64,000 bases of DNA from SAR202 cluster bacterium (GTDB taxonomy: Bacteria; Chloroflexota; Dehalococcoidia; Lucifugimonadales; UBA826), in the NCBI GenBank assembly GCA_009392815.1, contig VFFS01000055.1:66-64065 (forward strand), in the 5' to 3' direction. The notes under the pieces were generated by a model. The model was not told the origin of the DNA. It saw only the letters and a program-made list of their open reading frames with translations, and searched no databases. Both the position numbers and the translations under genes were made by a program. Shown here piece by piece: positions 57,964-62,201 of this stretch (positions within the stretch are counted from its first letter, which is position 1; each line of letters begins with the position of its first letter).

Positions 57964-58842
57964 ATGACCACAACCCGTAGGCTCCCCGTGTGGCTAAAGG
58001 TTAAGATGCCTGGCGGCCCAAATTATTCAAACCTGAAGAAGTTGATGCGTCAGGAAGGGTTACATACTGTTTGCGAAGAGGCGAGATGCCCAAATATTGG
58101 AGAATGCTGGGAAAGGGAAACGGCCACCTTCATGATACTTGGTGACACCTGCACTCGAGCCTGTACATATTGTGCCGTTAAAACAGGCAAACCAACGGGT
58201 TTGGATTTGGAAGAACCCTTGAGACTAGCTCAGACGGTCGAAAAACTTCAGCTCAAGTACGCTGTCATAACTTCCGTGAATAGGGACGATCTCGCAGATG
58301 GAGGGGCATTCATATTCTCTCAATGCATCACTCAGATAAAAAAACGAACGCCACGTTGCAAGGTGGAAGTTTTGACTCCTGACTTCCAAGGCGACATCAA
58401 AGCCCTAAAAAGTGTAATAGATTCAGGGCCGGATACATTCAATCACAACATTGAGACTGTAAGAAGGGTATTTCCTCGTATCAGAGCAAAAGGCGACTAT
58501 GACTTATCTTTAGATGTTTTAGCTAATGCAAAGCTCATAAATCCAGAATGCGTGACCAAGTCTGGCATGATGGTTGGATTGGGAGAAACGTTTGAGGAAA
58601 TTATAGACACTATGAAGGACTTGAGAAGGGTCAATTGCGACTTAATGACAATTGGTCAGTATCTTCGACCTTCTGTCAAACACTCCCCAATTTCGAAATG
58701 GTACACGCCACAAGAGTTTGAAGAGCTAAAGGACGAAGGAGAGAACCTGGGATTCAAACATATAGCCTCTGGACCATTGGTAAGAAGCTCATACCACGCC
58801 GATGAACAACACACCGCAGCAACCCTACTTCCCACAAACTGA
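57964..58842 (+). CDS. lipA: Lipoyl synthase
   Basis: CEEARCPNIGEC, CTRACTYC, NHNIET, GQYL.PS, RSSY. Confidence 0.97.
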   Translation: MTTTRRLPVWLKVKMPGGPNYSNLKKLMRQEGLHTVCEEARCPNIGECWERETATFMILGDTCTRACTYCAVKTGKPTGLDLEEPLRLAQTVEKLQLKYAVITSVNRDDLADGGAFIFSQCITQIKKRTPRCKVEVLTPDFQGDIKALKSVIDSGPDTFNHNIETVRRVFPRIRAKGDYDLSLDVLANAKLINPECVTKSGMMVGLGETFEEIIDTMKDLRRVNCDLMTIGQYLRPSVKHSPISKWYTPQEFEELKDEGENLGFKHIASGPLVRSSYHADEQHTAATLLPTN

Positions 58843-58893
58843 ATCCAAGCTGTCTACATCTAGATTCAGTTAGGCTCATTAAGAATTAGAATT

Positions 58894-59037
58894 TCAATCT
58901 GATGACGGAAGCTTTCTCGGCTGCTGAAGTTCCATTTCCGAATCGCAGCACTGTACTATTCCATCGCCAGCTTTAGTACACAACACGGTACTGCCACAGC
59001 TATCACATTCATATCTTCTACCCAATTGATTTGACAT
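58894..59037 (-). CDS. Desulforedoxin-like microprotein 2 (47 aa)
   Basis: MSNQLGRRYECDSCGSTVLCTKAGDGIVQCCDSEMELQQPRKLPSSD; CxxC-X15-CC; RBS AAAGGAAG; not in ORF track (<60 aa). Confidence 0.85.
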   Translation of the reverse strand: MSNQLGRRYECDSCGSTVLCTKAGDGIVQCCDSEMELQQPRKLPSSD

Positions 59038-59068
59038 CTACAACTTCCTTTCTGTGGTTTAGGTTCAC

Positions 59069-59185
59069 CTACTTTTTACTCATCGGCTCCCCGCAACATT
59101 CGATGGTCCCATCCGCACCGCGTGTAACAACAAATTCTGACCCACATTGTCCACATGAGTACCGTTTACCTGTTTCATTAGCCAA
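59069..59185 (-). CDS. Desulforedoxin-like microprotein 1 (38 aa)
   Basis: TTG start, MANETGKRYSCGQCGSEFVVTRGADGTIECCGEPMSKK; CxxC-X15-CC; RBS AGAGGTGA; not in ORF track. Confidence 0.85.
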   Translation of the reverse strand: MANETGKRYSCGQCGSEFVVTRGADGTIECCGEPMSKK

Positions 59186-59249
59186 TTCAATCACCTCTAA
59201 TCATCCGACATATAAAATAGTAAAACACATCATCTCTCAATAAATCAGA

Positions 59250-59278
59250 ATTATAAAAAAGCTATCAAGCATGGTCAA
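59250..59278 (-). promoter_or_regulatory. Sigma70 promoter for the desulforedoxin-like pair
   Basis: TTGACC-N17-TATAAT on the minus strand. Confidence 0.7.
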
Positions 59279-59313: not shown

Positions 59314-60174
59314 TCAAAGATCCTCAATGACGGCCTGTGCCGATTCATAATCTCTTCGGCCGCCTTGAAATATCGGTGGCACCAGATAAAAATAGTTGAT
59401 ACCAATTTCGAGGTATCTATGGATCATCTCTAGTGCGATCTCGTATCCAGAATTTCCGAGGTCTAACTCTTTAGTAATATGGTCGGGAACATTAGCAAAA
59501 GAAATGCTTCCTTTTGACATAATCTGAATACCCCAAATGATCGGAATAGGCATCTCTGACATCCGCCTTTCCTGGTATTCCTGCAGAAATTTATGTGCTG
59601 CATCTGGATCGAAATTTGGTTGGGCTATCAAAAAATCGGAGCCGGAGCGAATTTTATTATCCGCCAGAGACATTTCCGAACACCATTTTCGAGATATGTC
59701 TAAGGTAGCACCGACGCAAAATTGTGTTGGGTCTGTCAGACTACGGCCCGTAAAATCGATTCGATTGTTCATTTTTCTTACGGAACGTATAAACGCCGTG
59801 GGAGTAAATCCTTCGACAGGTTTATCAGTACCACATCCAGAATTATTGAAATTATCGCCTTTCACGACTACCAAGTTCCTGAGACCCATAATGTGCGCGC
59901 CTAGCAACGTAGTTTGCATCGCGGTCTTGTTCATATCTCTAGTCACCATAGTGAATAAAGCGGGAGTTTTGATGTTGCTTTCTATCCACTGTGCGATGGA
60001 GGGAGAACTAGCTCTGACCGTCCTTCCAGGATTAGCAGCCACAAAAAACATGTCGGGAGTAACCGAGGAAAGATCACTCAAGGCTTCGGTATTTCCACTT
60101 CTAGGAGGGGATACGTCGCAAACAATAAAAGGTCTTCGTCTATTTTTGGCAACTAATTCAACCAATGTAGACAT
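59314..60174 (-). CDS. Methylenetetrahydrofolate reductase-like flavoprotein (divergent MetF)
   Basis: DVSPPR, RDMN, G.RN.VVVKGD, F.VGA, K...G.DFLIAQP.FD, PIIWGI. Confidence 0.8.
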   Translation of the reverse strand: MSTLVELVAKNRRRPFIVCDVSPPRSGNTEALSDLSSVTPDMFFVAANPGRTVRASSPSIAQWIESNIKTPALFTMVTRDMNKTAMQTTLLGAHIMGLRNLVVVKGDNFNNSGCGTDKPVEGFTPTAFIRSVRKMNNRIDFTGRSLTDPTQFCVGATLDISRKWCSEMSLADNKIRSGSDFLIAQPNFDPDAAHKFLQEYQERRMSEMPIPIIWGIQIMSKGSISFANVPDHITKELDLGNSGYEIALEMIHRYLEIGINYFYLVPPIFQGGRRDYESAQAVIEDL

Positions 60175-60304: not shown

Positions 60305-60799
60305 TTATTTCCAGCCTAAAATACCCTCGGGATTGGGACAAAGAGAAACCCTATGTCCGGAGGTGCACTTATATCGCTCTTCCCTAATCTCTCGCCTTTT
60401 GCCAGACAAAGAAGACTGCGACATCCCTGAGCCACAGAAAGGGCAACTGACTCCAAACACTGCACGATTACGCACCCTGTAAACTTTTACATGGGTCAGG
60501 ACTTCGGTTAAAGCAGGAAACTCTCCGATATATCTCAGTACATAGCGGGTTCCCGTACCGATCACACTGTTTTTAGTTTGTTCAGGACGCTGAACTGTGT
60601 ACTCATAGTCCACATACCCGCAACTCAAACATTCGGCTTCCTCAAAGTTTACAGCTAACCGGGCAGAACATTTTGGGCAGTGACTCTTATTAGTTTTTGG
60701 CTTTCCTGATGTTCCAGGTAACCCAGGTGTTACCCTCCTCGGAACGATAGGAACTCTTGGTTTAGCCGGCGCAAATGGGTTAGAAGTCTGAACAACCAT
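60305..60799 (-). CDS. Hypothetical double zinc-ribbon protein
   Basis: CPKC-X10-CLSCG and CPFCG...CTSGH; RBS GAGGAG upstream. Confidence 0.7.
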   Translation of the reverse strand: MVVQTSNPFAPAKPRVPIVPRRVTPGLPGTSGKPKTNKSHCPKCSARLAVNFEEAECLSCGYVDYEYTVQRPEQTKNSVIGTGTRYVLRYIGEFPALTEVLTHVKVYRVRNRAVFGVSCPFCGSGMSQSSLSGKRREIREERYKCTSGHRVSLCPNPEGILGWK

Positions 60800-61400: not shown

Positions 61401-62201
61401 ATGTCCATAAATATTATTGTGTGTGCTAAGCAAGTGATGGACCCAGAAACACCTTCGTCTGCGTTCAGCGTGGATTCAGATATTAAACAAGTCACACCAG
61501 TGCAAGGCATACCCCCAGTCGTGAACGGCTTTTGTGAAAATGCTGTTGAGGCAGCGTTGCAAATCAGGGAAGCAGCTGGAGGTGGTACGGTAACTGTATT
61601 ATCTGTCGGTAACGAATTTGTTATGGATGTTATGAAGAAACCTCTCTCAATGGGTGCTGATAGTATGATCCTCATTCAAGATCAGCTTTGTGAGAACCTC
61701 GATGCTTTAGGAACGGTGAATGTACTCAGTGCCGCAATCACCCGAGCAGGAGAGTTCGATCTCATTTTGTGTGGCCAGCAAGCATCTGACTGGGATAACG
61801 CCCATGTCCCACTAGGGTTGTCAGAAACCTTGGGAATACCCTGCCTCACTGAGGCCAAAAATATTGAGATTGGTGACGACTCAGTAACTGTAAATAGCTC
61901 AAGAACGGATGGGTATGAAGTTTTCGAGGCCAACTTACCAGCCTTGATCACCGTTAATAATGAAATTGGTGAGCCTCGGTATCCAACCCTTCGGGGAATT
62001 ATGCAAGCAAGCAGAAAAACCCCAGAAATTTTGTCACTTTCGGACCTTGGGTTATCAGAAGATCAGATGGCCCCAGCAATGGCGCTCTCGGACCTTTATA
62101 TTCCAGTCAGTGAAGCACAATGTGAAATCATTGAGGGTGAAGACGACGCAGATTCCGGAAGGTTGCTAGCACTAAAACTTCGAGAAGCCAAAATAATATA
62201 A
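61401..62201 (+). CDS. etfB: Electron transfer flavoprotein beta subunit
   Basis: IIVCAKQV.DP, NAVE.AL, MGAD, DLILCGQQASD, LPALITV....EPRYP. Confidence 0.95.
   Translation: MSINIIVCAKQVMDPETPSSAFSVDSDIKQVTPVQGIPPVVNGFCENAVEAALQIREAAGGGTVTVLSVGNEFVMDVMKKPLSMGADSMILIQDQLCENLDALGTVNVLSAAITRAGEFDLILCGQQASDWDNAHVPLGLSETLGIPCLTEAKNIEIGDDSVTVNSSRTDGYEVFEANLPALITVNNEIGEPRYPTLRGIMQASRKTPEILSLSDLGLSEDQMAPAMALSDLYIPVSEAQCEIIEGEDDADSGRLLALKLREAKII

Follow-up and report, generated by a model that had tools for sequence, protein, structure and literature searches.

Desulforedoxin (Dx), the classic Fe(Cys)4 protein of sulfate-reducing anaerobes, is a homodimer of the product of one gene, and a Dx-like domain also forms the N-terminal part of desulfoferrodoxin (2Fe superoxide reductase, 2Fe-SOR; TIGR00320). 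Our full-text search of the literature found no description of a two-domain family with the Dx fold, and in excerpts of PMC3116461 the Dx domain is treated only as a part of superoxide reductases (SORs). Here we analysed a stretch of 64,000 nucleotides (nt) from a SAR202 cluster bacterium of the class Dehalococcoidia (contig VFFS01000055.1, positions 66 to 64,065), hereafter the window, in which the original prediction, made from the letters alone, had pointed to a tandem pair of minus-strand open reading frames (ORFs) for stand-alone Dx-like microproteins. The two ORFs (ORF1, 38 aa, and ORF2, 47 aa) were found as written, each with a ribosome-binding site, and the claimed pattern C-x2-C-x15-C-C was confirmed in both peptides, ORF2 having a fifth Cys in the sequence LCTK. 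Our results make it very likely that the two are real genes, that they are the split form of a two-domain Dx-fold family and that their products pair. The only recurrent genomic companion of this family is one clade of AMP-forming fatty-acid-CoA ligase.

ORF1 shares its size and layout with the Desulfovibrio gigas protein (1dxg/1cfw), a domain of about 36 residues with C-x2-C-x15-C-C. Unlike desulforedoxin, the family comprises two diverged genes or a two-domain fusion, its second half carries a conserved 12-residue tail ending in Asp, its fourth ligand can be Cys, His or Asp, and the site is lost in whole lineages. The Pfam model PF06397 (Desulfoferrod_N; gathering cut-off, 23 bits) matched ORF1 with 31.9 bits (E = 1e-7) and ORF2 with 22.1 bits (E = 1.2e-4), the latter 0.9 bit short of the cut-off, and NCBIfam TIGR00319 gave 19.0 and 17.8 bits, both below its cut-off of 36.05. 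The D. gigas structure 1cfw was matched with E-values of 6e-4 and 8e-3. The Dx-like nature assigned to both ORFs is thus borne out by similarity to PF06397 and to a solved structure and by the conservation described below. As in desulfoferrodoxin, the domain resembles an N-terminal Dx-like domain, and ORF2 aligns to residues 7-40 of the TIGR00320 model, including the start of the interdomain linker; unlike desulfoferrodoxin, there is no SOR centre-II domain, and the score is 22.5 bits against a cut-off of 146.9. Both ORFs stop after the Dx-like domain, and no match to the SOR domain PF01880 was obtained in the genome of the window (90 contigs totalling 1.78 Mb; 87.9% complete), which agrees with the earlier statement that no SOR is present. 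That genome has no convincing Dx-like match other than ORF1 and ORF2.

ORF2 is present in 32 of 41 related genomes (its own included) and in 22 of the 24 other genomes of the same family, with identities of 64-87% across the order, and every related genome that bears ORF2 has a weaker second match adjoining it, which is ORF1. A scan with the tail peptide, using one genome per species, yielded 134 stretches, and 131 of them were confirmed; the counts for Dehalococcoidia loci in this study use the best 80, all of them in metagenome-assembled genomes (MAGs) titled Dehalococcoidia, Chloroflexota or Chloroflexi. An ORF1-like frame lies upstream of ORF2 in all 80 of these loci, with a gap of 4-131 nt, so that the conservation of the pair in Dehalococcoidia, which the original prediction had proposed for checking, was observed; with a stricter ORF1 pattern the count was 64 of 78 loci. 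Nucleotide entropy at the three codon positions was 0.54/0.34/1.37 for ORF1 and 0.51/0.36/1.41 for ORF2, the third-position value being roughly threefold that of the first two positions in both. Because the tandem order is universal among the 80 loci and the entropy is concentrated at third codon positions, the comparison indicates that the pair is a set of real genes under purifying selection. In an alignment of 52 ORF1 sequences, G6, K7, R8, Y9, C11, C14, C30 and K38 were invariant. The codon at the position of the ORF1 start (59185) is TTG in 49 loci, GTG in 30 and ATG in one, and therefore a non-ATG start is the rule; as a side observation, ORF1 almost never starts with ATG and the window's ORF2 does, which hints at a tuned, unequal translation of the two halves. 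GAGG/GGGG-type motifs occur within the last 20 nt before ORF1 in the loci compared for the promoter.

A promoter of its own, TTGACC-17-TATAAT, had also been claimed for the pair. In the 1-kb region scanned, four promoter-like sites were found against 2.2 ± 1.5 in shuffled sequences, a weak result by itself. The claimed promoter was recovered (59278..59250), and a near-consensus match is kept upstream of ORF1 in 71 of 78 loci at 10/12 or better (54 at 11/12 and 17 at 10/12); the match was below 10/12 in the other seven, one of them containing Ns. The conserved promoter stands 28-100 nt ahead of ORF1, and its TATAAT is almost always perfect regardless of the upstream gene. These comparisons suggest that the pair is a unit with its own strong sigma70-type promoter in the window's genome. 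Contigs from marine metatranscriptomes (three runs in two studies) span ORF1 and the ORF1-ORF2 junction (59009-59209, 58966-59183 and 58951-59204); these are assembled contigs, which are weak evidence and do not establish that there is a transcript, where it ends or how abundant it is. In run X1 there was no contig at 59210-59278, and the depth was 17.3 over the small ORFs against 2.4-4.5 over the MTHFR-like gene; these values were not used as evidence.

We also searched 1.84 billion cluster representatives with a profile made from ORF2 relatives, and obtained 609 clusters (defined at 50% identity) with E ≤ 1e-3, of which 132 had E ≤ 1e-10. Many of the matches are proteins of 80-120 aa with two matched stretches. 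Their architecture is fused, with an ORF1-like N domain, a variable linker and an ORF2-like C domain ending in ...LPS[SAG]D, and the fused members, where they bear a name, are annotated as 'hypothetical protein', for example in MAGs labelled Betaproteobacteria, Bacillota and Chloroflexota and in a Streptomycetaceae isolate. The fused two-domain homologues that the original prediction had mentioned therefore do exist in other bacteria, with ...LPS[SAG]D at the very C-terminus. The tandem form was found in 68 of the 72 high-GC metagenome loci that have at least 200 nt of upstream sequence. In Chloroflexota of other classes, the stop of ORF1 overlaps the start of ORF2 by a few bases and ORF1 has a linker-like extension, which argues for repeated fission and fusion of the genes. 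In the window itself, a read-through fusion of ORF1 and ORF2 was ruled out because ORF2 lies in a different frame. Long frames that end in an ORF2-like domain (363 aa in L116; P0172; P0190) were rejected as fusions and interpreted as high-GC frames, frameshifted calls or chimeric short contigs. Separately, in five public gene calls (P0172, P0143, P0022, P0039 and P0046) the frame runs from the Dx-like gene into downstream sequence, in P0172 into an AMP-binding enzyme, and these look like assembly frameshifts or lost stops rather than true fusions. One protein of 122 aa (P0027) shows the reversed order, with an ORF2-like domain lacking the terminal tail followed by an ORF1-like domain, after an N-terminal hydrophobic segment, and may be a secreted or membrane-anchored variant.

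The Dx fold was modelled on fused homologues and not on the window's own chains. The AlphaFold2 model of the first fused member had a predicted local distance difference test score (pLDDT) of 83.6 and a predicted template modelling score (pTM) of 0.71, and each domain matched D. gigas desulforedoxin (1dxg_A) in Foldseek with a template modelling (TM) score of 0.94 and a root-mean-square deviation (rmsd) of 0.4 Å; for the fused member P0040 the values were pLDDT 92.9, pTM 0.79, TM 0.90 and rmsd 0.9 Å. The structure 1dxg_A was the only convincing Foldseek match, with E-values of about 1-3 owing to the short domain. The ESM Atlas returned only the family's own kind, and PF06397 was assigned to 45-57% of the members of the top clusters. 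A complex prediction for ORF1 with ORF2 scored 0.33 against 0.02 for the best of three controls, the runs sharing at least 96% of their contacts with a partner pLDDT of at least 68; the mark for this score is reached by 58 of 80 solved complexes and by 2 of 110 mismatched pairs, yet passing at 0.60 or below was seen for just 7 of the 80 solved complexes and for both passing mismatches, and a solved Dx homodimer exists, so the score may reflect memory. On the evidence as a whole, a 1:1 heterodimer of ORF1 and ORF2 resembling the Dx dimer is likely, and the existence of fused two-domain homologues is the best available argument that the products pair. For the heterodimer idea in the original prediction, the fused homologues that it named were found, and the direct complex prediction gave it weak support.

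The metal site behaves differently from the other conserved motifs. Among 125 full-length representatives of the C domain, 76 have CCCC at the four ligand positions, 33 have CCCH, 5 have CCCD and 11 have other patterns (mostly with the CxxC lost), and in ORF2 orthologues of the same class CC is replaced by CH in 6 of 20 relatives' loci. The fifth Cys, which had been singled out in ORF2, is present in the window and is Cys in just 82 of the 125 representatives, with Val, Ala or Ile in many lineages. By comparison, G6 (124), R8 (124), K7 (116), Y9 (106) and M35 (114) are nearly invariant in the same 125 domains, as are P44 (105), S45 (106) and D47 (119) of the tail; the domain ends at the protein C-terminus in 115 and Asp is the last residue in 119. 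The LPSSD tail, picked out earlier as a possible docking motif, thus proved to be the most conserved feature, and docking by it would still be conjecture. In three Chloroflexota loci (L116, L120 and L121) and in five actinobacterial plasmid genes, the C domain has at most a single Cys, and GKRY, VL(V/C)TK.G.G and ...KPLP[SA]SD are retained; these Cys-poor members had no Pfam match whatsoever. The lineages that lose Cys include fused forms in Rhodococcus, Mycobacterium and Streptomyces, and P0040, with both CxxC pairs gone, nevertheless gave the most confident Dx-fold model. Because the ligands vary or vanish while the other motifs stay and P0040 still models as Dx, the metal site, where present, appears to be structural rather than redox-active at the level of the family. 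The proposed role as a Dx-type electron carrier or metal sensor was therefore not supported for the family as a whole, in which all four Cys are kept by 76 of 125 representatives and whole lineages are almost free of Cys. The window's proteins keep all ligands, and therefore Fe or Zn binding is expected there; judging from their residues, each half probably holds one metal ion, either Zn or Fe.

Outside Dehalococcoidia, a gene that recurrently adjoins the family encodes a ligase. In Chloroflexota outside Dehalococcoidia, a gene for an AMP-binding ligase lies directly upstream on the same strand in 6 of 7 genomes, with an amidohydrolase gene downstream. The lineage of the high-GC metagenome loci (80 loci, 66 of them counted for downstream neighbours, with neighbour ORFs filtered by the GC content of third codon positions) is called the soil lineage below. 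There, 33 of 66 loci have a same-strand AMP-binding gene whose start lies no more than 1.4 kb downstream, and 48 of 66 have either a ligase or an enoyl-CoA hydratase (ECH) gene, the hydratase gene often standing ahead of that of the ligase; amidohydrolase genes also flank the pair. A tblastn search against plasmids matched six records, of which five were examined (Rhodococcus sp. BH4, R. rhodochrous, Rhodococcus sp. DK180, Mycobacterium branderi and Streptomyces sp. NBC_00564). In all five, which are megaplasmids, a gene for a fused 'hypothetical protein' of about 100 aa directly abuts a ligase gene, lying upstream of it in one and downstream in four, and the ligases are annotated as 'long-chain fatty acid--CoA ligase', 'fatty acid--CoA ligase family', 'AMP-binding' or 'class I adenylate-forming'. 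The plasmid clusters are beta-oxidation-like, with genes for acyl-CoA dehydrogenase (ACAD), thiolase with a Zn-ribbon/OB-fold protein, ECH, SDR, CoA-transferases and thioesterases. On the Rhodococcus, M. branderi and Streptomyces plasmids (L214-L216), the gene beside that of the thiolase encodes a 'Zn-ribbon domain-containing OB-fold protein' (DUF35-like), which is a further small accessory of the metal-ribbon kind in acyl-CoA metabolism, and a ferredoxin gene, fdxA, precedes the ligase gene on two of the Rhodococcus plasmids.

The linked ligases L112 and L188 are 47% identical to each other, and NCBIfam PRK06187 is the best model for all linked ligases, although only the protein of the window's genome exceeds its cut-off. 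That genome has four genes of the ANL superfamily in our search, and its only ligase of the linked clade (G000 C58:43873-45432, hereafter C58) lies on a different contig from the pair. All eight linked ligases tested had C58 as their best match, with 266-427 bits against at most 171 bits for the other ANL genes; C58 is 48% identical to the linked ligase of Chloroflexota and 34% to that of Rhodococcus. An alpha/beta-hydrolase encoded beside C58 was also compared with the one beside the soil pair, and their identity of 23% over 140 residues lent no support. We then searched 300 other Chloroflexota genomes for the pair or fusion and for a C58-type ligase. The tail-bearing pair or fusion was found in 18 of them, with nine further matches that are tail-less and like generic Dx domains. 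A C58-type ligase with at least 46% identity occurs in 13 genomes (in one as a 61% fragment), all of which are among the 18 pair-bearers, and in G116 the fused gene adjoins a ligase 40% identical to C58. In the 282 genomes that lack the pair, identity to C58 reached 41% at most.

On these grounds we favour, at a little under an even chance, the explanation that the split Dx-fold pair forms a pseudo-dimer that is an accessory or partner of this one clade of ligase. ORF1 and ORF2 would be the two halves of a split member of a family that elsewhere is one chain of 80-120 aa. Each half would take the Dx fold, and the halves would pack as a Dx-like pseudo-dimer, here an ORF1:ORF2 heterodimer. Everywhere, the family keeps the basic N-terminal G-K-R-Y, T-K-x-G-x-G, a Met and, in the second half, the free C-terminal end ...[KR]-x-L-P-S-[SA]-D, and through this conserved surface or tail the module may dock on the ligase (ANL superfamily, NCBIfam PRK06187-like), in an accessory role that could be likened to that of the MbtH-like partners of adenylation domains, to which it is unrelated. 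The heterodimer, the identity of the metal, the physical binding to the ligase and the effect on it are what we infer here and not what was shown. A stronger version, which we consider possible although somewhat unlikely, is that the family is an unrecognised class of ligase partner subunit, in which a Dx-fold pseudo-dimer exapted from metal or redox chemistry binds the ligase and controls or completes it. The metal site would then decay freely, and the invariant ...LPS[SA]D end and the G-K-R-Y patches would bind the ligase; in the boldest form, the C-terminal Asp would itself be a substrate or carrier site.

Several observations weigh against the partnership with the ligase. No ANL homologue was found within 8 kb on either side of the pair in any of the 80 Dehalococcoidia loci, and the orthology of the ligases across phyla rests on just 31-34% identity. 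With all eight ligand cysteines retained in the two proteins of the window, the site may be a redox-active Fe(Cys)4 centre in this organism. A natural fusion of the ligase with the Dx module was not found, in what was a weak search. Four of the 18 pair-bearing genomes (G270, G111, G174 and G294) have no C58-type ligase at the threshold, and in two of them CoA-transferase genes are adjacent. The co-occurrence in the 300 genomes is confounded by lifestyle and kinship, related genomes not being independent, and identity in it was measured from the window's own C58. In the order-level set, the ligase orthologue is present in all 31 pair-bearing relatives and absent from six genomes without the pair (G027, G030, G031, G038, G039 and G040), and it is present in three incomplete genomes in which the pair was not found (G003, G024 and G034); however, the six genomes that have neither pair nor ligase also lack the other ANL paralogue type, and because of this the order-level profile was not counted as discriminating.

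Three rival explanations were considered. The pair might be a heterodimer of the desulforedoxin type with an Fe(Cys)4 site, acting as an electron carrier or metal sensor for an oxidoreductase of this aerobic marine bacterium, as the full Cys set and Dx-like sequence of the window's proteins and the matching predicted fold of their homologues would allow; 76 of the 125 representatives keep four Cys and the 33 with Cys3His also have a plausible Fe site, the conserved promoter is strong, and redox genes are near, namely those for an ETF beta subunit and the MTHFR-like protein in the window and the ferredoxin gene ahead of the ligase in two Rhodococcus clusters. However, members in which the site is partly or wholly lost retain the other motifs and the same genomic partner, and therefore the conserved function need not use metal redox chemistry; nor was an SOR found in the genome or any redox enzyme consistently adjoining the pair across lineages. 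We regard a redox carrier as unlikely overall, and as a live rival for the window's organism.

A rather unlikely alternative keeps the heterodimer as a structural, zinc-ribbon-like module and lets the tail bind some other core partner, in which case the linkage to the ligase would reflect shared regulation of acyl-CoA catabolic islands. The autonomy of the pair in Dehalococcoidia, where it has a promoter to itself and its neighbours vary, the 4 of 18 pair-bearing genomes without the ligase clade at the threshold and the high conservation of ORF2 (64-87% identity across the order) are all consistent with it, whereas a ligase gene directly adjoins on the same strand, in either order, in three or more deep lineages, and none of the 282 genomes that lack the pair showed the ligase clade. 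It could further be imagined that the protein is itself a carrier, loosely like LysW, whose C-terminal Asp carboxylate is adenylated by the ANL enzyme and whose product is released by the neighbouring amidohydrolases or hydrolases. ANL enzymes activate carboxylates, Asp is last in 119 and the domain ends the protein in 115 of the 125 representatives, and amidohydrolase genes flank the pair in Chloroflexota of other classes and in the soil lineage. We consider this very improbable, as we are aware of no ANL enzyme that acts on the C-terminus of a protein, the clusters resemble ordinary beta-oxidation sets (thiolase, ECH, ACAD, SDR), and no ATP-grasp or E1-like enzyme was seen among the annotated neighbours.

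The features of the locus are summarized in Table 1. The hairpin past ORF2 has a centroid energy of -12.8 kcal/mol and a z-score of -1.04 against shuffles, which is not significant, and the terminator scan made no call there; it is a possible weak terminator, and a terminator after ORF2 was rejected as a firm feature, with just this hairpin (z = -1.04) and no U tract. A riboswitch in the 5' leader was rejected, since the 60-nt leader is less stably folded than its shuffled versions (z = +1.63). An interpretation of the peptides as precursors of ribosomally synthesized and post-translationally modified peptides beside a radical-SAM enzyme was also rejected, since the neighbour is a bona fide lipoyl synthase, encoded convergently, and the peptides are conserved over their full length.

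Table 1. Features of the ORF1-ORF2 locus, in positions of the window.
Feature	Position	Strand	Description
ORF1	59069..59185	-	38 aa + stop, TTG start; Dx-like half with C11, C14, C30, C31
ORF1, alternative form	59069..59194	-	GTG start, 41 aa; in the program-made ORF list
Shine-Dalgarno-like site of ORF1, AGAGGTGA	59191..59198	-	5 nt ahead of the TTG at 59185
ORF2	58894..59037	-	ATG start, 47 aa + stop, MSNQLG...LPSSD; extra Cys20; C-terminal tail ELQQPRKLPSSD
Shine-Dalgarno-like site of ORF2, AAGGAAG	59044..59050	-	6 nt ahead of the ATG at 59037
-35 hexamer, TTGACC	59273..59278	-	17-nt spacer to the -10 hexamer; promoter scan, 11/12 match
-10 hexamer, TATAAT	59250..59255	-	Promoter scan
Hairpin, 12-pair stem	58837..58871	-	22 nt past the ORF2 stop; overlaps the 3' end of convergent lipA; without U tract
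lipA	57964-58842	+	LIAS_N and Radical_SAM domains; convergent with ORF2
MTHFR-family gene	59314-60174	-	Domain match; lies upstream of ORF1

The neighbours in Dehalococcoidia are lineage-specific. Of 79 loci, 44 have the MTHFR-like gene upstream in the same orientation and 47 have lipA; other neighbours encode LexA, a luciferase-like monooxygenase, ADH, SDR, DAO, RtcB and Amt, and further variable neighbours are genes for ATP sulfurylase, DeoC, GTP cyclohydrolase I and CoA-transferases. The MTHFR-like gene was rejected as a functional partner, since a conserved promoter lies between the genes and the adjacency is confined to one lineage. Just upstream of this gene in the window (60305-60799, minus strand) is an ORF of 164 aa that is rich in Cys, with several C-x2-C pairs and no Pfam match, which keeps this place in 31 of 79 related loci and is possibly an unannotated zinc-ribbon protein. 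An ETF-family gene (PF01012) lies 1.2 kb from the MTHFR-like gene (61401-62201, plus strand) and is found in 31 of 79 loci; its position beside the MTHFR-like gene might be relevant to which electron donor the reductase uses. In two genomes of the Dehalococcoidia family f22 (G111 and G174; loci L105 and L107), genes for a family I and a family III CoA-transferase flank the pair, and the genomes have no C58-type ligase at the threshold, so that the partner may have been switched there from ligase to CoA-transferase.

The Dx fold thus appears here in a widespread family, not described in the literature searched, of aerobic-type Chloroflexota, Actinomycetota and other lineages, characterized by repeated gene fission and fusion, by loss of the metal site and by association with fatty-acid-CoA ligases rather than redox enzymes. 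Some annotations miss such pairs or leave them as 'hypothetical protein', and the variation at the ligand positions is a caution that a Cys pattern is not proof of a redox function. If the partnership is true, the family would provide a new accessory factor for ANL enzymes, which could matter for the heterologous expression of the ligases and could help in reading the catabolic islands of Rhodococcus, Mycobacterium and Streptomyces, and the conserved, strongly promoted microprotein pair of marine Dehalococcoidia would acquire a function. If the exaptation is also true, the ligase activity of abundant deep-ocean heterotrophs of the SAR202 type would depend on a highly expressed microprotein pair.

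Apart from desulforedoxin and desulfoferrodoxin, four known systems can be compared with the family. The amino-group carrier LysW is a zinc ribbon with an EDWGE-type C-terminal tail and an adjacent gene for the ATP-grasp ligase LysX; unlike in LysW, the tail here is ...LPSSD and an ATP-grasp gene is absent among the annotated neighbours. The tandem rubredoxins RubA and RubB of alkane-hydroxylase clusters are encoded by two adjacent genes for small Fe(Cys)4-type proteins, and the adjacent gene pair for small Cys4-type proteins described here is like them in this respect. Unlike in rubredoxin, an adjacent CC replaces the second C-x2-C knuckle, and the rubredoxin family (PF00301) was not among the Pfam matches of the window's peptides at E ≤ 10; rubredoxins are, moreover, monomeric carriers without a conserved C-terminal tail and without Cys-free members doing the same job. 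The Zn-ribbon/OB-fold thiolase scaffolds of the DUF35 type are similar in being small Cys4 modules tied to acyl-CoA enzymes, in the same actinobacterial clusters, whereas they have an OB-fold with a rubredoxin-like ribbon, a thiolase as the partner and separate genes. MbtH-like proteins, of fewer than 100 aa, are small partners of the adenylation domains of nonribosomal peptide synthetases (NRPSs) and are encoded beside an adenylating enzyme of the ANL superfamily. The family differs from them in sequence and fold, which are unrelated, in giving no MbtH match in Pfam, in that neither peptide of the window has a Trp, a residue conserved in MbtH domains, and in its partner, which would be an acyl-CoA ligase and not an NRPS; by analogy alone, it is like MbtH in being a small protein that is encoded beside an ANL enzyme and is proposed to bind it.

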